A stretch of DNA of 64,000 nucleotides from the IMG/VR virus record IMGVR_UViG_3300033049_000020, positions 32,001-96,000 of that record; one strand, 5' to 3'. Below, piece after piece: positions 12,751 to 62,517 of the stretch (position 1 is the stretch's first letter; each line of letters starts with the position of its first letter). The translations under genes and the position numbers were made by a program. The notes below the pieces were generated by a model. It did not search any database and was not told where the DNA came from. It was given only the letters and a program-made list of their open reading frames with translations. This DNA is from a virus.

Positions 12751-13126
12751 GGGGTCGACTGGTTTTGACTGCAAGAGATTGGATGTATAAGCAAGCACTG
12801 GGAATTTTTGGATTATACCAGTATAAAATGTATCTGAAAACTATAACTGACGAAACTAACGTAACATCAGCACAATATCTAGAAAGCATTGCACTTGCAG
12901 TGACTTCAGAGAAGGCAGCGCTATCTGCATAATAAGCGCCAATTAGGAGAAGCCTAATAAAGCCTCAGTGTTCTTTCATTGATGAGGTTGAAACTACAAA
13001 GAAAGATGGGTTTGTGAATTCCTATAAAGATTCACTAGTTTGATGGTTTAGAAAAACTAAATAAGCTTGTAGAAAGTATGTATGGTACTTGTTAGGACGA
13101 GGGTTCGATTCCCTCCGACTCCACCC
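12751..13126 (+). ncRNA. ssrA: tmRNA with 27-codon tag DETNVTSAQYLESIALAVTSEKAALSA (12849-12932)
   Basis: 5' GGGGTCG pairs with 3' CGACTCC-A; T-arm GAGGGTTCGATTCCCTC; ATAACT before resume codon; Ala-ending tag then TAATAA. Confidence 0.9.
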
Positions 13127-15334: not shown

Positions 15335-15408
15335 GCCTTTGTAGCTCAGTTGGTCAGAGTAGGGGACTCTAAATCCTTTGGTCGTGGGTTCGAATCCCAC
15401 CATTGGCA
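15335..15408 (+). tRNA. tRNA with CTA anticodon (amber-suppressor type)
   Basis: Cloverleaf; GGGGA-CT-CTA-AA-TCCTT; two U-U pairs in acceptor stem. Confidence 0.85.
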
Positions 15409-15413
15409 CATAA

Positions 15414-15482
15414 GGGACAATTGTAGGTACGGGTCTGAGATTCTAAACCTCAAGGCATGGGGTTCGAATCCCCATTGTCCCT
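15414..15482 (+). tRNA. Second CTA-anticodon tRNA, degenerate D-arm
   Basis: GGGACAA/TTGTCCC; TGAGA-TT-CTA-AA-CCTCA; canonical T-arm. Confidence 0.7.
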
Positions 15483-15515
15483 CTGTTATTACCAAATAAA
15501 CTTAATATCTTTATT

Positions 15516-16043: not shown

Positions 16044-16154
16044 TTATCAATCACTTAGTAATTATTTTCAAAAAACTTTACAATAATACTTGACAAATCC
16101 AAATAAATATAGTATCTTTGTATCATAATTAACCGAAAGGTTCTTTGAAATTTT

Positions 16155-16533
16155 GGCCTTGTAGCTCAGAGAAGACGGATTTATAAGTACTTCGGTACCT
16201 TTATCTTAAAGAGCACTGTCTAGACAGATGTCGCAGGTTGAATCCCTGCCGAGGCCACATATGGGGATGAAGTAAGTACACCTAGTGTAAACTGCTTTTG
16301 GAAGCTCACCCTTCCCATCCCCACCAATTGGGGACGAAGCATTGGGGTTAAAGCCAAACGCTTACTTGGTAGTGAAAATCTACCCGTCCCCACTAATATG
16401 CGTGGATAGCATAATCAGAAAGGACACTGATAATATTGTCGTTGAATTACATTCTTGGTCGACAATCGCTAATTATACCTTTCTAGTGCAACTGCTTAGG
16501 TAGTTTGTTGAGGTGGAAACCCTCATCCATGCA
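16155..16533 (+). ncRNA. Four tandem tRNA-like RNAs lacking a normal anticodon loop (16155-16257, 16263-16326, 16330-16395, 16400-16533)
   Basis: Each has a 7-bp acceptor stem and a T-arm-like hairpin; preceded by promoter and boxA-like GTTCTTTGAAA. Confidence 0.7.
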
Positions 16534-24051: not shown

Positions 24052-24141
24052 ATGATGAGTATACATATTAGTTCGATTAATTGGAGACGCAATGTCACCA
24101 TGGTCAGCAATTGCTTAGATTTCACCAAAACAGGAATATAA
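24052..24141 (+). CDS. Leader peptide of tRNA array 1: MMSIHISSINWRRNVTMVSNCLDFTKTGI
   Basis: Lies between promoter (23960-23991) and terminator; codons match the downstream tRNA isotypes. Confidence 0.75.
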   Translation: MMSIHISSINWRRNVTMVSNCLDFTKTGI

Positions 24142-24161
24142 AGCAATATCTCGAAAGAGTT

Positions 24162-28451: not shown

Positions 28452-28539
28452 TGCAGGGTCGAGAAGTGGTATCTCATGAGTCTCATAAGCTCAAATAGCC
28501 TAACGGTTGTCGATGGTTCGATTCCATCTCCTGCTTCCA
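28452..28539 (+). tRNA. tRNA-Met(CAT), long variable arm
   Basis: TGAGT-CT-CAT-AA-GCTCA; encoded CCA. Confidence 0.8.
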
Positions 28540-29216: not shown

Positions 29217-29506
29217 TTTGTATATGTCAAATATGTTTTGTATCTTTGCACTATGGAAGATGTTAAAATGTTTCTATTCGCAAGGTGGATAGCCACTTGT
29301 TATGCTGACACTCACTTAGATGGTGAGATGAGAAGTGAAGCTGATAAAGGGTTTGACGTATCAGATAATATGTCTGTTTTGAACGGGGAAGATGGTTATT
29401 GGTATAAGAAACAACTCAAACACTTCAATGAAGTTGTATACCCTAACTACCTTGAGAATGGAACAGTTAAGGATACTGAAGACTTCCTTAAAGTAAAATA
29501 ATATAT

Positions 29507-29598
29507 CGCGGAAATGAGGGCTGGTGGTGACGCTCAGATAGGCTCATAACCTATCAGGTTGAAACATACTGTGATTGGTTCGATTCCAACTTCCGCAA
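29507..29598 (+). tRNA. tRNA-Met(CAT), C1-A72 mismatch, long variable arm
   Basis: ATAGG-CT-CAT-AA-CCTAT. Confidence 0.75.
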
Positions 29599-29688
29599 CT
29601 TTTGATATTTCTCTAGAGAGGCTGATACCCGTAGAGTGTAAAGTGGTAATATAGCTTAGAAAGTGAAGTTCACAATATCAAAAAATAT

Positions 29689-29774
29689 TCTCAGTTCGCA
29701 TAGTGGCCGATTGCAGAAGACTGTTAATCTTCCGAGGGTTCCCCTCCACGCTAGTTCGAATCTAGCACTGAGAG
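29689..29774 (+). tRNA. tRNA-Asn(GTT), long variable arm
   Basis: GAAGA-CT-GTT-AA-TCTTC; G73. Confidence 0.85.
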
Positions 29775-29832
29775 CATCTATTTACATTTTCTTGTAAGTT
29801 GACTATATTTATTAACGTAAACAGTTAATAAT

Positions 29833-38655: not shown

Positions 38656-39210
38656 ATGTCAAAATTATTTCGTACCTTTGTAGAAGAAAAAAGAAAACAG
38701 AAAAATATGCCAAAAGACATAGAGATTGAACGTAAGTTTCTAATGAGGGTTAATCCTTTCAGATTCGATTATGACGATGTAGTAGAGATACACCAATGCT
38801 ACCTTCCCAGAGATGAGGAAGGGTTTACGGTTAGATATCGAGCAACAGCATTAGATGGAGTCGCGGCATACGTCAAGACAAGGAAGAAAAGAATATCTGA
38901 CATGTCATGTACAGAACTTGAACATAAAGTGACCAAGCCTGAGTATGATAGAGCAGAAGAAGAGAGTTTAAAGAGTTTAGTAAAATTAAGATATAGAAAG
39001 AAAATAGGTAATTTAGTTTGGGAACTAGATGATTTCTTAACGTCCCGACTTATGATTATGGAGGTAGAATTACCTAGCGAAGATTATGAGTTTGATATTC
39101 CTAAAGAGGTGGAAATTTGTACACTTATGGAAGTAACGGGAATTGATGAGTTCTACAATGAAAACATTGCAATTACAGACGAAGTTGCTGCAACACAGAT
39201 AAGAGTATGA
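38656..39210 (+). CDS. CYTH-domain protein
   Basis: EIERKFL, WELD, EVEL, EVTG. Confidence 0.85.
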   Translation: MSKLFRTFVEEKRKQKNMPKDIEIERKFLMRVNPFRFDYDDVVEIHQCYLPRDEEGFTVRYRATALDGVAAYVKTRKKRISDMSCTELEHKVTKPEYDRAEEESLKSLVKLRYRKKIGNLVWELDDFLTSRLMIMEVELPSEDYEFDIPKEVEICTLMEVTGIDEFYNENIAITDEVAATQIRV

Positions 39211-46411: not shown

Positions 46412-48496
46412 ACTTTAAATATACACATTAAATTTGCATATGTCAATTATTTTTAGTATCTTTGTTCTATGAAAATTAAAAATGTTTGAAATTTTAAAGA
46501 AATACTTCAATATTCAGAATTCAAGTCAAAAGGCTTTGATAGTTGAAGAGAAGATTAAGTACAATGAAATCATTGACGCTATACGAACTGATGACAACAG
46601 TAATAGTAGGGAAATAACTAATCGACTTAATGGTCGTTGTCCTAATTGTGGTGAGACAACCAAAATAGTGAATAAGATACAACAAACCCATGGTAGTGGC
46701 TCAGTATCTGGTAGCTTTTCTTTAGGGTTTGGCTCAGTATATGGTAGTTCCAGTTTGGATACTGACCCTGTAAATCACTGTAATGGTTGTGGTAATCAAT
46801 GGAAGAAATACCGTTCTAATCATAAGAGTAGTAAGGATGTGTCACGAAGTATGTTAAGAAGTGTGGAAAGTATCTTGGAGGGAAATGATTATAGATTCCA
46901 ACTTAGTGATTATGAAAAACTTAAACATTTTCATGCCGAAACTATAGAGGTTGTTAATGAAGATTTAGGTGGCCATTGGCTTACGGGACAGAGGGAGTTC
47001 ACACTAAAAGAATTAAGAACGATGTTTAAATCAGTATTTGACAAACAATAATATGGGATGTGATATACACGGATACCTTGAATACTCAGGGATACCAAAG
47101 AAAGAAGACTTAGATAAAGGTAAAAAGAGATATTGGCGCTCAATGGGTGACCAGATTTCATTAAATAGAAACTATTACATGTTTGGAACATTATGTAAGG
47201 GTGTTAGGGGAGACCTAAAACATACATTTATACCTAAAGGTATCCCAGAAGATATTGGGTATTTTGCTCAGTTTGATAATAGATTACACCTAACAGATAA
47301 CCCAAATGAGGGAGGGGAAGAGTATGCCGACAGTAAGTCAGCCAAAAGGTGGGTGGAACAAGGTATAAGTGAATATCTTATGAATAGAGATGGCAAACCA
47401 TATGCGGTGACACATCCAGACTGGCACTCACACAGTTACCTATCAACTGCTGAATTTAAAGAAGCGTTTGAGATGTACAAGAAGAATCTAACTAATGAGG
47501 GAGATGATTCGGAAGGATGGGGTCTTGCTGCTACATACTACGCGGTGTTAGGGGCAATGGAAGCATATGAAACCAGAGACATGGAAGCCAGATTTGTATT
47601 TTGGTTTGATAACTAATGGAAGGCGGTCAAGAAATAATACGCAACGTTCTCAAGAGAATAAAGAAGCGTAAATCACCTTTCCACGGTAACATAAAGTGTG
47701 ATTGTGGCCATACTCAGAAAGACCATTCTGGTGGTCAAGGATGGTGTCACGATAGTAGACATCCAAATGCTGGAAAGTGTGGTTGCACTTGGTTTCACCC
47801 AAATGTAAGTTATATTAATAAACGAAAAAATAAATAATTATGCCATCAGGATTTACAGCAGGTATTATAGACGGAAAACACAAAACCTTCACAGACTTTG
47901 CAAAGGATTGTATGAGGAACTTTGGTGCCACCATACATATGAGAGATGATGCTAGGGATAAGGAATATGAAGCTAGAGTTGTTTCTCCATACTACAACGA
48001 AAGGTTTGAGGAATATGTAATAAACTTAGGTAAACTATTAACAGCAACTGACAAGCAACTAATAACTAAGGAGAAAAAAAAACTAAAAGATAGGATAGTT
48101 CGTGCTACCGAAAAAATAATAGAAATTACTGCAACCAAAGAACGGTTAAACGCTTTCTTAAAAGAGGCTAAAGCATACCAATCACCGACACCAGAACATG
48201 ACGGTATTAGAGAGTTCATGATTAATCAAATTAAAGAGACTACTAAGTTTGATGGTAGTACTGAGTATTACGATAAAGAATTAGCTACCTGTAAAGAAGA
48301 GTTAAAGAATATTAACGTTGAAGAGATAAGAAGTAAAAATAAAGTATATCTTAAGGAAGATATTGAACGTGCTCTTGAGAATGAGAAAGACGAAAAAGAT
48401 AGATGTGACAACTCAAATGAGTGGGTTAGAACATTTCTTGATAGTCTTGAAGAAGAAAAAACCGAGAGTATTTGAACTTAAATTAGATAAAAATCA

Positions 48497-48566
48497 AAAA
48501 TATTTTACAAAAGACTTGTATTATCCAAATACTTTTCGTATCTTTGTACTATATTTAATAGAAAGA
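48497..48566 (+). repeat. About 70-bp promoter block, identical copy at 58843-58912
   Basis: AAAATATTTTACAAAAGACTTGTATTATCCAAATACTTTTCGTATCTTTGTACTATATTTAATAGAAAGA at both sites. Confidence 0.9.
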
Positions 48567-48577
48567 AGAAACAAGTT

Positions 48578-48673
48578 ATGTTTACAACAATTACAATATT
48601 AGTCTTATGTTTACTGAGCAGCGTGGTGCTGTTGAGGCAAGAGAGCTATGATGTAATCTATTGTAAAGCATAA
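48578..48673 (+). CDS. Leader peptide of tRNA array 2: MFTTITILVLCLLSSVVLLRQESYDVIYCKA
   Basis: Promoter, Leu/Val/Cys-rich uORF, terminator. Confidence 0.75.
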   Translation: MFTTITILVLCLLSSVVLLRQESYDVIYCKA

Positions 48674-48698
48674 AGAACTACAATACTTAATACATTAG

Positions 48699-48729
48699 AA
48701 GCTCTTACTCTCCAGTAAGGGCTTTTTTT
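48699..48729 (+). terminator. Attenuator terminator 2
   Basis: AAGCTCTTACT-CTCC-AGTAAGGGCTT-TTTTT. Confidence 0.85.
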
Positions 48730-48755
48730 ATGTCCAGTTCTTTGAAATAAAATAT

Positions 48756-48841
48756 GTGTAGGTGCCTGAGTGGTCGAAAGGTGCGGTCTGCAAAACCGTA
48801 AGGAGAAATCCTCATCGTCAGTTCGAATCTGACCCTACACT
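48756..48841 (+). tRNA. tRNA-Cys(GCA), long variable arm
   Basis: GCGGT-CT-GCA-AA-ACCGT; U73. Confidence 0.85.
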
Positions 48842-48847
48842 CTAAAT

Positions 48848-48920
48848 GTCCCTATAGTGTAGCGGTTCAGCACGTAACTCTTACAAAGTTGCAGCCCAGA
48901 TTCGAATTCTGGTGGGGATA
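48848..48920 (+). tRNA. tRNA-Val(TAC)
   Basis: TAACT-CT-TAC-AA-AGTTG. Confidence 0.85.
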
Positions 48921-48947
48921 CAAAGAGGAATGAAGTACAAGTTCCTT

Positions 48948-49464
48948 GGCTAAGTGGTGGAATTGGTATACACGCCCTCTGAAGGGGAGAGTTCATTACG
49001 ATACCAGAACGGAGTTGCGAGAGCGTGAGAAGGAGTTAGTTAATGAGGGTTTGTTGAAAGAGGTTTTATGTATGAATTTGGCAATAGGTGGAGGCGGTGG
49101 GTTTACTAGTAAAGAGCATATGTTAAAAGCTACTAAAGCTGGTAATAAAGCGACCCTTAAGAAGAGGTGGATTGATAATAGAGAAGTGAATGTTGATAAT
49201 TTGGTTAAACTAAACAAGAGTATGTGGGCTGACCCACATATGAGAGAAAAAATGCTTAAATCTAATGGGTTTAAAGATAAGACACATAGTGAAGAAACGT
49301 TGGGGAAGATGAGAGAGGTTATGAAGGGTAAAGGTACTGGGAAGGATAACTCGCAATATGGTACTTGTTGGATAACCAGAGATGGTGAGAGTAAGAAGAT
49401 AAATAAAGAAGGAATTAACGAATACCTTGCAAAAGGTTGGGCTAAAGGAAGAAAAGGAACATAA
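48948..49464 (+). pseudogene. 5' part of a Leu-type tRNA fused to an N-terminally truncated Seg-like endonuclease
   Basis: GTGGTGGAATTGGTATACACG D-arm; ORF lacks the GIY-YIG motif but keeps CMNL..GG and NSQYGTCW. Confidence 0.7.
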
Positions 49465-49696
49465 AATGGGTAAAGTAAAATATATAAGTAAAGTAGGTGA
49501 ATGGTTTAAAGAAGGTACAGAAGCTTTCCGTGAAGAACCTACCTATGAGGGTCATGCAATATACAAAGGTGTTTATGTTGTCGGAAGTTCTGGTGGTGGG
49601 TATGACAACTTTTGGTATAATAAAGGTCATAAGGATGGTGATGAGGTAGAGATGAGGGAACATTGTTCAGATGATGAATTTGATATTAAATAATAC

Positions 49697-49768
49697 GTCT
49701 CTATGGTGTAACGGCAAGCATCTCACTATGACATGGTGAACGGATTGGTTCGATTCCAATTAGAGATA
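49697..49768 (+). tRNA. tRNA-Val(GAC)
   Basis: TCACT-AT-GAC-AT-GGTGA. Confidence 0.8.
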
Positions 49769-49779
49769 CAATAATATAA

Positions 49780-49862
49780 GCCGCAGTGGTGAAATGGTAG
49801 ACACGCCAGACTTAGAATCTGGTGCCCTTACGGGCGTGTGAGTTCGAGTCTCACCTGCGGTA
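49780..49862 (+). tRNA. tRNA-Leu(TAG)
   Basis: CCAGA-CT-TAG-AA-TCTGG. Confidence 0.9.
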
Positions 49863-49873
49863 CAGTATCACAT

Positions 49874-49956
49874 GGGGATGTGGTGGAATGGTAGACACAC
49901 TAGCTTGAGGGGTTAGTGCCGTGAAAGGCGTGTGGGTTCGACTCCCACCATCCTCA
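49874..49956 (+). tRNA. tRNA-Leu(GAG)
   Basis: CTAGC-TT-GAG-GG-GTTAG. Confidence 0.88.
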
Positions 49957-49964
49957 CAACATAT

Positions 49965-50042
49965 GCGCTAGTAGTCCAATTGGTTAGAGGCATCAGGCTT
50001 AAACCCTGTCCAGTGTGGGTTCGAGTCCCACTTAGCGTACCA
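49965..50042 (+). tRNA. tRNA-Leu(TAA), short variable loop
   Basis: CAGG-CT-TAA-AC-CCTG; encoded CCA. Confidence 0.85.
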
Positions 50043-50045
50043 AAT

Positions 50046-50129
50046 GCCGTAGTGGTGGAATAGGTAGACACGAGGGTTTCAAAAGCCCTTTCCAGTAATG
50101 GAGTGTGGGTTCGAGTCCCACTTACGGTA
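50046..50129 (+). tRNA. tRNA-Leu(CAA)
   Basis: AGGGT-TT-CAA-AA-GCCCT. Confidence 0.88.
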
Positions 50130-50458
50130 CAAAATGAATGGAAAGCTAAAAACGGATATTAAGATGGAAATGAAACATAGTATTAAAGAAATAGTGAAAG
50201 ACAATACAGCTATACTGGAGTATAGTCAAAGTGGTAAATTATATTACTCTGTGGAAGTTGCAGATAGTACATATAGTGTGACAGCTACTAAATATACCTT
50301 CCCAGTAGACGTTACTAATAGTGATGACGTTGGAGATAGCAGATTTGAGTTAACGCATAAAGCGATTACTCTAATGAGGTATATTCGAAAGGCTATTAAG
50401 TCTGAAGAGATTCGTTGGGAAGAGTGTGCTATAAACTTTTCACAGTTGTAATTAGTAT

Positions 50459-50530
50459 TTCCCTATGGCGTAACGGCAAGCGTATCGTTTTTACATGACG
50501 AAGGGGATGGTTCGATTCCATCTAGGGAAA
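50459..50530 (+). tRNA. tRNA-Val(TAC)
   Basis: TCGTT-TT-TAC-AT-GACGA. Confidence 0.82.
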
Positions 50531-50568
50531 CTGGTGACTTTTTGGTACCTAGCACTATATTTAACTAT

Positions 50569-51213
50569 ATGAGGAAACCAAAAACGATACATTACATTTA
50601 CAAAACCACTTGTGATGTAACTGGTCGATACTATGTAGGGATGCATAGTACCAGTAACCTAGAAGATGGTTATATGGGTTCAGGTAAGAGGTTAAGACGT
50701 TCCATACGTAAGTACGGAGAAGATAATCATACCAAAGAGGTTGTGGCGTTCTACGATAGTAGGGAACTACTGGTTGAAGCTGAGAAGGAAGCCATCACAC
50801 CATATATGATTGGGGATAGGGATTGTATGAATCTGATGGGAGGTGGAACTGGCGGTTGGTGTAGTGAGGAGCACATGGTTAAATGTACTATAGCTGCTGG
50901 AAAAGCTAATAAAGTAAGGTTTGAAGTGGATATTGAGTATAAGAATTGGTGTTTAGATATTATGGCTAAAGGTAGGGCTAAATTAATTGATACGGGAGCG
51001 TATAAAAAGAAAGGTAAGGGGTTAGGTAGAGTTCATTCAGATGAAACTAAACAGAAAATGTCCAAATCGTCTAAAGGGAATGGTGTTGGAAAGTCTAACT
51101 CTCAATATGGTACTTGTTGGATAACCAGAGATGGTGAGAACAAAAAAATAAAGAAAGAAACTCTTAATGAATACTTAGAGATAGGTTGGGTTAGGGGAAG
51201 AGGAATAAAATGA
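50569..51213 (+). CDS. Seg-like GIY-YIG/NUMOD3 homing endonuclease
   Basis: YIYKTT..YYVGMH..YMGSG. Confidence 0.85.
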   Translation: MRKPKTIHYIYKTTCDVTGRYYVGMHSTSNLEDGYMGSGKRLRRSIRKYGEDNHTKEVVAFYDSRELLVEAEKEAITPYMIGDRDCMNLMGGGTGGWCSEEHMVKCTIAAGKANKVRFEVDIEYKNWCLDIMAKGRAKLIDTGAYKKKGKGLGRVHSDETKQKMSKSSKGNGVGKSNSQYGTCWITRDGENKKIKKETLNEYLEIGWVRGRGIK

Positions 51214-51887: not shown

Positions 51888-53162
51888 ATGAAAGAAGATA
51901 AGTTTTACTGTTTGACTATGTTTCCTTATCCTAGTGGTAGTGGGTTGCATGTCGGTCACGCCTATAACTACGCTGTTATGGATAGCTATTGCCGTTGGAA
52001 GAATTTCTGTGGCGTAGAGACATTCCAACCGTTTGGTTATGATGCATTTGGCTTGCCAGCAGAGAATTACGCTATTAAACACAATCGAGACCCAAGAGAG
52101 ATTACTTATGAAAATATCGATAATTTTCGTGGTCAAATGGATAGAATGACTACCAATTACGAAGAGATGGTTATCACTTCTGACCCATCTTACTACAAGT
52201 GGTCACAATGGTTGTTCACCAAGATGGTGGAACACGATATGGCCTACAAGAAGAATGCGCCTGTGAATTTTTGTCCTTCATGTAATACTGCTTTGGCTAA
52301 CGCTCAAGTGGTTGAAGATAAGTGTGAACGATGCGATACTAAGGTAGAACAACGAGATATGAACCAATGGTTTTTCAGGTTGAGCAAGTATGCAGATAGG
52401 TTGGTCTCCAACTTGGACATCATTGACTTCCCAGAGAAGACAAAGAAGCAGCAACGTCACTGGTTGAAAGAACCCCAAGATTGGTGTGTATCTAGGCAAA
52501 GAGCTTGGGGTACACCAATCCCTATTAAGGGAGAAACCGACACATTGGATACATTCGTTGACAGCTCATTTTACTTTATAAGGTATTGTGACCCAACTAA
52601 CGAGAATGAAATAGCCGCTAAGGATAAGATACGTCAAGTAGACTTGTATGTAGGTGGTAATGAACACGCTTGTATGCACTTGGTGTATGCTAGGTTTGTA
52701 AATATGTTCTTGTTTGATATTGGTGTGACCCCATTTGAAGAGCCATTCAAGAAATTGGTTCACCAAGGTATGATAATCAAGGATGGTGAGAAGATGAGCA
52801 AATCTAAAGGTAATATTGTTAATCCAGACGATTATGACCCAGACGAGATGCGAGAATATTTGATGTTTTTGGGTCCTTATACCCAAGGTGGTGATTGGAG
52901 CGATAGTGCTATGGTGGGCATTAGGAGGTTCAACGGTAGGTTTAATAGATGGTTGGGTAATGCCCAGATTGACGGTGAATCAATAGATGTTGGACAATTG
53001 ATGAGTGATATTGATAAAAATGTGGAGATATTTAATTTTCATTTGGTTATTAGTTCATTTATGAAATTCTATAATTCAAACAAGGGTAAAGTTATCAACA
53101 TTAACACTAAGAATGAATTGACTAAAATGTTTACCTGTTTTGCACCCAATTTTACGTCTTAG
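51888..53162 (+). CDS. leuS: Short leucyl-tRNA synthetase-like protein (no CP1 editing domain)
   Basis: MFPYPSG..LHVGH, DAFGLPAEN, DWCVSRQRAWGTPIP, DTFVDSS, KMSKSKGN; only 424 aa. Confidence 0.88.
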   Translation: MKEDKFYCLTMFPYPSGSGLHVGHAYNYAVMDSYCRWKNFCGVETFQPFGYDAFGLPAENYAIKHNRDPREITYENIDNFRGQMDRMTTNYEEMVITSDPSYYKWSQWLFTKMVEHDMAYKKNAPVNFCPSCNTALANAQVVEDKCERCDTKVEQRDMNQWFFRLSKYADRLVSNLDIIDFPEKTKKQQRHWLKEPQDWCVSRQRAWGTPIPIKGETDTLDTFVDSSFYFIRYCDPTNENEIAAKDKIRQVDLYVGGNEHACMHLVYARFVNMFLFDIGVTPFEEPFKKLVHQGMIIKDGEKMSKSKGNIVNPDDYDPDEMREYLMFLGPYTQGGDWSDSAMVGIRRFNGRFNRWLGNAQIDGESIDVGQLMSDIDKNVEIFNFHLVISSFMKFYNSNKGKVININTKNELTKMFTCFAPNFTS

Positions 53163-57586: not shown

Positions 57587-58923
57587 GATGGACTTAGAAA
57601 AACAATGGAACGACTTACGTAACGATGGTAAATTATTATCATATATTGAGGATAAGTTTGACCACTATAAAGAACTTGGCTATCAAGTAAGTGCCTTCAT
57701 AAGCTCTTCTTATATTAGTATTGGAGATGAGAGTATCACAGGCAACAAATCCATGTACCACGAATTAAAGAGTATTCATGATATGGATGCGTACTTAAAA
57801 GATAAAGAGGAAAGTCAACCATGAACAAACTACACGCAAGAAAAATAAGTGAAACCATACCTGATGTTGCAATATTCAACATGCTGGAACGTGCTAAGAC
57901 TGAGGTAAAGGATTGGTCGGTTCCATGTAAGGTGAATGGTCAGATAAGTAGGGGACATTTCTGGAACATGTTCGCATGTCAACTTAAAGCTCCAGATTTT
58001 GAAATCGTGAGTAGTATGGTTAAGTATAGTCTTATATATGAGTTCGGTGACCTACTTCCAAAGGAGTACCAACCACCCAAAAAGAAAAAAGGTAAGGAGT
58101 TACCATTAAACTATATTCATTCAGAACCAAAATTTAACTAATGGAAACAGATGGAGATTACGATACTGGATGGGATGAATCAGAAGATACTGAACTAGAA
58201 GCATGGGATGTAGAAACGGATTCTGAAGACCCAGAATTTGAAACTGGTAAGGAACCAAATAAGGATATTGATTATTTATACATTCTTGGTGAGGCTTGGC
58301 CAGTATATCCGCAAGGTATCACCACTATTTTCGAAGATAAATATGAAAGACCTCATATTGTATCTAGAGAGCAATTTGATGCTATTCACACCAAATACTC
58401 TTGTATAGATATTGATGATGAGGTAACGGCTATCGATATAGTCAAAATTGGAAACACATCTTACGAATTTACCATTAAAGAACTTAATATCAGATGTCGC
58501 TCTAACTATCCTTGGGCATTCTTTGAGAACACTCCAGAGAATAGACCGAAAATCAATGAGTACTATAGACAGAAAAAGAATAGAGAAGAGTTGGCTGAAA
58601 TAGTTGAAGTATTAAGAAACGATATTGCACAACTATGAACGAAGAAGTTACCCACTTCAATTATTGTATAGCTAGACCATGGAAAAATAATCCAAATAGT
58701 CTATCCGCATACGCTTTAGGTACTCAATTATTTTATGGTACTATGGAGGAGGCTGAAGACACAAGAGCGAATATAAGTAAACGAGCTGGAAAAGAATATG
58801 AAATCTATAAGCTTGATAATCAACCACTTATGAGAAAACCTTAAAATATTTTACAAAAGACTTGTATTATCCAAATACTTTTCGTATCTTTGTACTATAT
58901 TTAATAGAAAGACATAAACAGTT

Positions 58924-58992
58924 ATGAGAAACTTTAACGACATATTCGAATTCAACTTTGCCGCATTTGCGGAGGAGGATGATTGCATCTAG
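58924..58992 (+). CDS. Leader peptide of tRNA array 3: MRNFNDIFEFNFAAFAEEDDCI
   Basis: Promoter, Phe/Ala/Glu/Asp-rich uORF, terminator. Confidence 0.8.
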   Translation: MRNFNDIFEFNFAAFAEEDDCI

Positions 58993-59034
58993 ATGCCAAA
59001 GGATATGTTGTAAACGAAACTCAATACGATATAC

Positions 59035-60013: not shown

Positions 60014-60640
60014 ATGGTAAGAAAATGGAGAGAAAAGGAAATTGAGTTTTTAAAGCTTAATTATGGTGCTAATGGTTGTAAATACGTTTGTGAAAAATTA
60101 AATAGAGGTAGAGGTAGTGTACAGAAAAAGGCTAAAGTCTTCAACCTGAAAGTAGATAGGAAAAAAATTTATTATTCAGTGGAAGTTGTTAGTAGAATAG
60201 TCAGTGAAAGTATGTCGATGAAGGATGTGGTGTTGGCATTAGGTAAAAGTGTTAGTGGTAAACAATATAAGGTAATAAAAAAGTTTATAGATGATAATAG
60301 TATTGACGATACACATTTTAATCCTTACCACTTAAATAAAACTAATTTAAAAATTGGTAGAGTCACATATCCAATTGACCATTGGCTTAAGAACGGTTCT
60401 AATATTAGTAGTTCTAACTTAAAGGTTAAACTATATAAAGAAGGTCTGAAGAAGAGGGATTGCGAAATGTGTGGGCAAGGTGAAGAATGGTTAGGTAAAA
60501 AAATGAGTTTAATACTTGACCATATTAATGGGGTGAATGATGATAATAGGTTGGATAACTTAAGGATTGTTTGCCCTAATTGTAACGCTACCTTGGAAAC
60601 CCATTGTAGAGGTAGTAAGGGATTAAAACAACGTGCGTAA
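60014..60640 (+). CDS. HNH endonuclease
   Basis: CEMCG..LDHINGVNDDNRLDNLRIVCPNC. Confidence 0.9.
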   Translation: MVRKWREKEIEFLKLNYGANGCKYVCEKLNRGRGSVQKKAKVFNLKVDRKKIYYSVEVVSRIVSESMSMKDVVLALGKSVSGKQYKVIKKFIDDNSIDDTHFNPYHLNKTNLKIGRVTYPIDHWLKNGSNISSSNLKVKLYKEGLKKRDCEMCGQGEEWLGKKMSLILDHINGVNDDNRLDNLRIVCPNCNATLETHCRGSKGLKQRA

Positions 60641-60714
60641 TGCAATTGGGTGCGCAACTGGGCTTTCACCCCAGCTACATTGTTAGAGAGTGGGTTCGAT
60701 TCCCACACGCATGA
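60632..60714 (+). tRNA. tRNA-Glu(TTC), long variable arm, inside a split tRNA (halves 59934-59964 and 60720-60767)
   Basis: CTGGG-CT-TTC-AC-CCCAG. Confidence 0.8.
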
Positions 60715-60908
60715 CTATACAACCTTGTGTCTATATGACTTCGAGGGTTCGAATCCCTTCGGCACTACATTATTGGTGTTCCAAATTGACCTAAAATTGA
60801 GTGTTTTGGAACACCAATAACCAGCCAAAACTACCTGTTTTAGGGTACATTTGGCTGGTTATAGAACGCGGAATGTACTTAAATGTGGTAGATTCCGAGA
60901 AATATCAC

Positions 60909-62369: not shown

Positions 62370-62398
62370 CCTTTGACAATCTGGAAAGACAGATAAAT

Positions 62399-62481
62399 GG
62401 ATATGGCGCATAACGGCTGGTGTACCTGACTGTCACTCAGGTGTGTGTAACACGTAGTGGGTTCGACTCCCATCATATCTG
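62399..62481 (+). tRNA. tRNA-Asp(GTC), long variable arm
   Basis: CCTGA-CT-GTC-AC-TCAGG; G73. Confidence 0.82.
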
Positions 62482-62517
62482 CCCTTGACTTTTTGGTACT
62501 TAGCCATATTTATATGT

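Follow-up and report, generated by a model that had tools for sequence, protein, structure and literature searches.

The short open reading frame (ORF) that precedes a group of Cys, Val and Leu tRNA genes in a large virus fragment probably belongs to a working leader-peptide transcription attenuator of that tRNA operon, a conclusion reached entirely in silico with nothing measured. The record is a 152,464-bp IMG/VR virus fragment, estimated to be 43% complete, that carries at least 44 tRNA genes and one tmRNA. The stretch analysed here (the window, 64,000 nt) comprises its bases 32001-96000, and coordinates below are window positions unless another source is named. A promoter, a 31-codon ORF, a terminator and eight tRNA genes (Cys, Val ×3 and Leu ×4) follow one another in this order on the plus strand, and both these sequence elements and their geometry are matters of direct observation. 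An initial annotation had likened the arrangement to an ilv/leu leader placed ahead of tRNA genes, and this likeness held up computationally, as all of the proposed elements are present and each performs better than its controls.

The leader ORF lies on the plus strand from an ATG at 48578 to a TAA at 48671–48673. It consists of a generic Thr/Ile header (codons 1–7, 48578–48598) whose composition is shared by 31 leaders, a Leu/Val/Cys sensor (codons 8–19, 48599–48634) and a tail (codons 20–31) that encodes the 5′ strand of an antiterminator. The sensor reads Leu-Val-Leu-Cys-Leu-Leu-Ser-Ser-Val-Val-Leu-Leu, exactly as the codons had been listed in the initial annotation, and 10 of its 12 residues are Leu, Val or Cys; this density is reached in any window by only two of 708 genomic short ORFs (20–45 aa). 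Over the whole leader, Leu, Val and Cys account for 12 of 30 residues (binomial P = 1e-3, with a phage proteome background of 0.154), and this overall fraction of 40% is attained by ∼4% of the short ORFs (20–45 aa) of the genome. The Leu/Val/Cys signal of this leader is therefore moderate when taken alone and strong only in combination with the sister units and relatives described below. The 10 Leu, Val and Cys codons of the sensor (TTA ×3, CTG ×2, TTG, GTC, GTG ×2 and TGT) correspond to six of the seven different anticodons in the array, and all 12 such codons in the leader can be read by array anticodons. Two of the codons used in the sensor are rare in the phage, with CTG representing 5% of its Leu codons and GTC 9% of its Val codons. 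Among all 31 array sets compared in this study, it is the leader's own Cys/Val/Leu set that is most enriched in it.

The match had been described as loosened by Thr, Ile and Ser codons, and most of this could be explained. The Phe-Thr-Thr-Ile-Thr-Ile start (codons 2–7) is a generic header, because the 31 leaders share a Thr/Asn/Ile-rich start whatever their array: these three amino acids make up 54% of residues 2–7. The two Ser codons of the sensor remain without explanation; Ser recurs in the orthologous leaders, the array has no tRNA-Ser, and neither ARAGORN with a lowered threshold nor Rfam with E up to 10 detected a Ser, Thr or Ile tRNA in the array gaps. The sensing zone comprises 18 codons, eight of which specify Phe, Thr, Ile or Ser, and strict specificity is therefore impossible. 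No Shine-Dalgarno sequence is present before the leader ORF, as expected for a Bacteroidota-type host, and translation of the leader thus has no support from such a site. We infer that the header may assist initiation on RNA that is A/U-rich and unstructured, in a host that initiates without Shine-Dalgarno pairing.

The promoter is of the Bacteroidota type (48516–48546, plus strand) and features a TTG at 48516–48518, a 20-nt spacer and TATCTTTG at 48539–48546. The assignment to the TTTG/TAnnTTTG type is an assumption by analogy with Bacteroides and Flavobacterium promoters. From its position, transcription is inferred to start near 48552, about 25 nt before the leader ORF. Approximately 60 copies of the core motif occur in the 152-kb record, all of them on the plus strand and mostly just before a start codon. 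Many copies are followed by an ATG only 2–5 nt past TATCTTTGTA (for example at 29239, 30615, 43769, 54420 and 63827), a spacing that, judged from the sequence, would imply leaderless or nearly leaderless mRNAs. The promoter and 5′ untranslated region of the Cys/Val/Leu unit share 96% identity over 84 nt with those of a Phe/Glu/Asp unit (58843–58926), and weaker copies of this sequence head further units.

The tRNA array, which includes interspersed small ORFs, spans 48756–50531 on the plus strand. ARAGORN and Rfam both identified all eight tRNAs with the anticodons originally reported: Cys(GCA) starting at 48756, Val(TAC) at 48848, Val(GAC) at 49697, Leu(TAG) at 49780, Leu(GAG) at 49874, Leu(TAA) at 49965, Leu(CAA) at 50046 and a second Val(TAC) at 50459. 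The tRNA-Cys(GCA) (48756–48842) is unusual in its length of 87 nt and its long, stem-forming variable arm, and its charging identity is not settled; in bacteria this class II shape is normally limited to tRNAs for Leu, Ser, Tyr and Sec. In a 58-kb relative, the tRNA-Cys orthologue has a length of 76 nt. Directly after the first tRNA-Val are ∼150 nt of structured-looking non-coding sequence (48922–49071), one loop of which resembles a Ser(UGA) anticodon loop; neither ARAGORN nor Rfam called a tRNA here. Two ORFs that resemble homing endonuclease genes are associated with the array. The first (50542–51213, 223 aa) features a NUMOD3 domain and a weak GIY-YIG SegE match and separates the array from the next gene, and the other (49072–49464) has no Pfam match.

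That next gene (51888–53162, plus strand) encodes a half-length, 424-aa class I aminoacyl-tRNA synthetase whose earlier description as LeuRS-like is supported by matches to Pfam tRNA-synt_1 (1.7e-42) and to the NCBIfam bacterial LeuRS model TIGR00396 (1.2e-120, 404 bits, below the cut-off of 548 bits). It has a promoter motif of its own at ∼51335, and no terminator was predicted between it and the array, so it may be part of the same transcription unit. In relatives, the LeuRS-like gene adjoins the array, within ∼100 nt of the last Leu or Val tRNA, and a Leu-rich leader probably governs this gene there too.

Between the leader and the array lies an intrinsic terminator (48697–48729, plus strand) with a 13-bp stem (48697–48709/48714–48726), a 4-nt loop, seven T (48723–48729) and a hairpin energy of -15.0 kcal/mol. 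Its stem begins 23 nt after the leader stop codon, which is also the median gap of the 31 units. The minimum-free-energy fold of 48550–48732 (-43.5 kcal/mol, z = -2.45 in comparison with shuffled sequences) comprises this terminator and an imperfect hairpin that spans the ORF (48576–48673, plus strand), equivalent to a 1:2 "protector" or possibly a pause structure. This hairpin is predicted to sequester the 5′ strand of the antiterminator when the leader is untranslated. The antiterminator itself is a predicted three-tier hairpin of 21 bp on the same strand (48641–48706; tiers 48641–48647/48700–48706, 48649–48655/48691–48697 and 48659–48665/48680–48686). Its outer helix contains the AGAGCT (48642–48647) and its complement AGCTCT (48700–48705) that had been proposed to pair, both of which are exact in the sequence. 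With the RNA up to a stalled ribosome masked, the antiterminator has an energy of -18.2 kcal/mol and occupies seven bases at the start of the terminator stem; in the models, formation of one fold thus excludes the other. The equilibrium fold of the full-length RNA also prefers the antiterminator when a ribosome is masked on the sensor codons.

The predicted outcome depends on where the ribosome is placed. Calculated on RNA that ends before the 3′ arm of the terminator, the gain from pairing the terminator 5′ arm is -11 to -12 kcal/mol with codons 5–17 in the A site, -9 kcal/mol at codon 18 and approximately -1 kcal/mol from codon 19 to the stop codon. Shuffled controls gave -4.4 ± 2.1 kcal/mol, and none of 200 attained the observed gain. 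The stop codon (48671–48673) sits in the apical loop of the antiterminator, and a terminating ribosome would therefore hold this structure open. These results are thermodynamic predictions and assume a ribosome footprint that extends 13 nt beyond the A site.

A layout of promoter, short ORF, terminator and tRNA array occurs at four places in the 152-kb record. One sister leader (24053–24142) begins with codons for Met, Ser, Ile, His, Asn, Trp and Arg and precedes a His/Ser/Arg/Met/Asn array. Another (58925–58993), in which Phe, Glu, Asp and Ala are abundant, is followed by tRNAs for Phe, Glu and Asp, with an Ala tRNA called only under a lowered ARAGORN threshold. The fourth unit lies outside the window (genome positions 109643–109732) and has 15 consecutive codons that specify only Thr, Tyr, Lys, Gly, Gln and Pro, six amino acids that are exactly the isotypes of its array. 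The leader at 58925–58993 stops at a TAG 42 nt before the terminator stem, and reading through this codon would add seven codons and give a gap of 22 nt, which is the family norm. This stop may be linked to two adjacent tRNAs with the anticodon CTA (15335–15409 and 15414–15483), which are of the amber-suppressor type and were called as Pyl by ARAGORN, or it may be a coincidence. General recoding of TAG, suggested by these tRNAs and by the sister leader, was rejected, as the genome as a whole gives no indication of it: 17 of 152 long ORFs terminate at TAG, and the gain from read-through does not exceed that of a TGA control.

No near relative was found among GenBank phages, where the sole match was a 48-nt tRNA stretch, and none was found through the 211-aa protein encoded upstream. 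A promoter-pattern scan of viral contigs yielded one true relative, a 58-kb contig that is present in two samples and has its arrays in the same order as this phage. The productive anchor was the LeuRS-like protein, which led to 11 more loci, several of them in complete genomes of 370–508 kb. Units were then defined by a terminator no more than 400 nt upstream of a tRNA and a short ORF ending just before that terminator. In total, 31 distinct units were collected from eight related contigs (several of them genomes of 370–508 kb), with 27 of the units outside the present record. Examples of leaders that mirror their arrays are as follows: six Gln codons precede four tRNA-Gln genes, (Leu-Ser)×6 precedes Leu, Ser, Ser, Ser, Leu and Leu tRNAs, Ser4-Arg-Ser2 precedes Ser and Arg tRNAs, and Asn4-Gln3-Tyr-Gln2-Asn2-Tyr precedes Asn, Gln and Tyr tRNAs.

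This family-wide link between leader and array was quantified over the 31 units by counting leader residues whose amino acid occurs among the isotypes of the array. Matches to the leaders' own arrays sum to 358, compared with 149.5 ± 16.6 for permuted pairings (maximum 235), and none of 200,000 permutations attained 358. The units are not all independent; as related units share arrays, the permutation test is, if anything, conservative on this contrast. The match is frame dependent, at 43% in frame and 18% and 16% in the two shifted frames, which argues that the leader ORFs are read as codons. Matching of individual codons is only modest across the family, where 81 of 98 codons for six-fold degenerate amino acids are readable by the leader's own array against 71 expected. 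An antiterminator of at least 8 kcal/mol that exceeds 95% of shuffles is predicted for 28 of 31 units when the stall position is chosen post hoc and for 12 of 14 units with predefined stall positions, and it is lost in all 31 units when the ribosome is placed at the stop codon. The sensing zone, defined as the codons before this loss, holds 282 of the 349 matched residues.

We therefore favor a scheme in which the unit reads the supply of its own products, where translation of the ORF, the conditional nature of termination and the physiological signal are all inferred. Transcription would begin near 48552 and a ribosome would load onto the 31-codon leader. If Leu-, Val- or Cys-tRNA were short, this ribosome would linger within codons 8–18, leaving the RNA from 48641 free, so that the antiterminator (48641–48706) could take the 5′ arm of the terminator. 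RNA polymerase would then pass a boxA-like site into the Cys, Val and Leu tRNA genes and possibly on into the LeuRS-like gene. With fast decoding, the ribosome would instead proceed to codon 19 and then to the stop codon, where it would hold the antiterminator open and allow the terminator (48697–48729) to form and transcription to stop. Without translation, the ORF-spanning hairpin would lock the antiterminator strand and the terminator would again form. Overall, this would amount to negative feedback, in which the tRNA set is made only while the codons that it serves are read slowly.

The boxA-like motif in this scheme, GTTCTTTGAAA, is located at 48737–48747 (plus strand) between the terminator and the first tRNA. 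The general form GTTCTTTGA(A/C)A is present at five window positions (16140, 24997, 48737, 59163 and 59911) compared with 0.15 expected, always on the plus strand and always adjoining tRNA genes. Its likeness to rrn boxA antitermination sites is assumed by analogy, and the sites suggest rrn-type processive antitermination on tRNA operons. At 16111–16400, a promoter and a boxA-like site lead directly into a tRNA-like sequence that contains a large insertion, with more structured RNA behind it. This RNA operon has no leader ORF and no terminator, and leader gating is thus not universal among the RNA operons of the phage.

An unlikely but surviving alternative is that the unit is a true attenuator whose signal is general amino-acid starvation or translation stress instead of tRNA supply, with the tRNA output being incidental or part of a stress programme. 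Ribosome stalling is blind to whether an amino acid or its tRNA is lacking, and the Thr, Ile, Phe and Ser codons within the sensing zone are compatible with a broader signal. Against this, extra tRNA would, by inference, give no relief from amino-acid starvation, and leaders across the family list the isotypes of their own arrays despite the absence of any metabolic link between them, as with Phe/Glu/Asp/Ala or His/Trp/Phe/Lys. The latter pattern therefore fits feedback on the products themselves, which is again an inference. The two kinds of shortage are indistinguishable from sequence, with product feedback on tRNA supply as the more parsimonious interpretation.

We give still less credence to the possibility that the ORF encodes a small hydrophobic membrane peptide in front of a constitutive terminator, with the array expressed by leak-through or from elsewhere and the Leu, Val and Cys residues forming a transmembrane helix. 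Residues 2–19 do form a hydrophobic stretch of 18 residues, a run of Leu, Val and Cys resembles a membrane helix, and, as noted above, the Leu/Val/Cys fraction is equalled by ∼4% of short ORFs in the genome. Conservation in related phages had been suggested as a check, and Cys/Leu/Val-rich leaders were indeed found before Cys/Val/Leu arrays in two other lineages. In a 368-kb relative (L028 7029–7103), a 24-codon leader with 12 Cys, Leu or Val among 23 residues precedes an array of Cys, Val, Leu ×4, Val and Leu. In the 58-kb contig, which is the closest relative (G001 38912–38989, reverse strand), the leader has a GTG start and 15 Cys, Leu or Val among 24 residues; it also has a Thr/Asn/Ile-type header, a stop-to-stem gap of 23 nt and an antiterminator that is kept up to codon 16. 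An ATG-start ORF in G001 was rejected as the leader, as only 6 of its 21 residues match and its stop codon is only 9 nt from the stem; the GTG-start ORF, which lies in a different frame, was preferred because it restores both the composition and the 23-nt gap.

These three leaders (31, 25 and 24 codons) have in common their composition, their hydrophobicity and one or two Ser beside Cys, and differ in residue order, length and nucleotide sequence, as judged without a formal alignment statistic. Conservation of the peptide beyond its composition was not observed among them. The shared hydrophobicity would suit a membrane peptide, but the retention of composition without residue order speaks against one. 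Furthermore, sister units with the same promoter type, geometry and switch design have hydrophilic leaders that mirror their arrays, such as runs of Gln, Ser/Arg or Asn/Gln/Tyr. Only 26 nt without a promoter motif separate the terminator from tRNA-Cys, the antiterminator exceeds all shuffles, and the tracking of the array is frame specific. An RNA-only element such as a riboswitch, a T-box-like tRNA sensor or a processing or stability signal, with the ORF a coincidence, can claim the highly structured region (z = -2.45) and the precedent of T-box leaders that sense tRNA upstream of translation-related genes, but is very improbable because the leader-array match is confined to the ORF reading frame and because leaders naming three to seven amino acids are beyond what a single specifier codon could explain. 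Rfam gave no T-box or leader family at gathering score anywhere in the window, and in 48400–50700, with E up to 10, its only non-tRNA matches were sRNA matches of chance level on the terminator.

Several other features of the window relate to translation. A phage tmRNA with a 27-residue tag is located at 12751–13125 (Rfam, 90.7 bits). Some tRNAs are unusually long for their isotype, namely two for Met (88 nt, 28452–28539, and 93 nt, 29507–29599), and those for Asn (87 nt, 29689–29775), Asp (87 nt, 62398–62484) and Glu (84 nt, 60632–60715), which suggests insertions or long variable arms. Together, the tmRNA, the tRNAs and the LeuRS-like gene represent a large translation toolkit.

If the attenuator reading of the Cys/Val/Leu unit is correct, large phages would express tRNAs on demand, isotype set by isotype set, through decoding speed, which would answer an open question of why and when these genes are used. 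The 31 variants would constitute a natural family of modular sensors with exchangeable codon specificity. From them one could predict the host tRNAs whose loss a phage anticipates, for instance through anticodon nucleases, and draw simple components for synthetic circuits that report how available a chosen tRNA is. On balance, we lean towards a broader proposal, with considerable reservation: that huge phages of Bacteroidota-type hosts carry a modular sensor of decoding capacity, in which isotype-sorted tRNA operons and a LeuRS-like gene are autoregulated by the speed at which ribosomes read a leader composed of the codons that these tRNAs serve. Attenuation of this kind would be the first known for tRNA genes, and would enable the phage to replace exactly those tRNAs that are removed by host defence nucleases or by host shut-off.

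Leader-peptide attenuation is known to control the biosynthesis of amino acids as well as certain aminoacyl-tRNA synthetases and resistance genes, and we know of no case in which tRNA genes are the output. A literature search found no account of an attenuator ahead of tRNA genes, whether of phages or of cells, with the reservation that coverage of subscription journals was limited and older work was possibly missed; one candidate paper was set aside as it concerned pheL only. The data support a classical attenuation mechanism that acts on a new kind of target and is modular and family-wide.

A close comparison is with the enterobacterial leaders of ilvGMEDA (Ile/Leu/Val), ilvBN (Val/Leu) and leu, which likewise have a short promoter-proximal ORF with a cluster of Leu and Val codons, mutually exclusive protector, antiterminator and terminator structures, and a stop codon positioned such that the antiterminator is blocked by a ribosome completing the leader; there too, one leader can sense several amino acids. 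In contrast, the output of the phage unit is a set of tRNA genes, perhaps with the LeuRS-like gene, instead of biosynthetic enzymes, and the unit is a phage-borne, repeated cassette with exchangeable sensor codons, a Bacteroidota-type promoter, no Shine-Dalgarno sequence and a boxA-like site after the terminator. No sequence homology to these leaders was seen, and the Rfam Leu, His, Thr and Trp leader families gave no match in the window at the gathering score or in 48400–50700 at E up to 10. The pheM leader of the Escherichia coli pheST operon is also a case of leader-peptide attenuation of the translation machinery that senses cognate charged tRNA, but it controls a protein-coding aminoacyl-tRNA synthetase operon and responds to one amino acid, whereas the phage leader would sense the whole isotype set of its array and gate tRNA genes. 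T-box riboswitches similarly read tRNA supply in the leader of a translation-related operon and switch between terminator and antiterminator. However, they bind uncharged tRNA through one specifier codon and without translation, whereas the phage signal is specific to a reading frame, and the T-box covariance model matched neither at gathering score in the window nor, with E up to 10, within 48400–50700. Further close counterparts of the Cys/Val/Leu unit are its sister units in this phage and its relatives, which have the same promoter class, header, sensor, antiterminator tail, gap of ∼23 nt and tRNA array. They differ only in their sensor codons and arrays, and the Cys/Val/Leu unit is the least self-evident of them owing to its membrane-helix-like composition.
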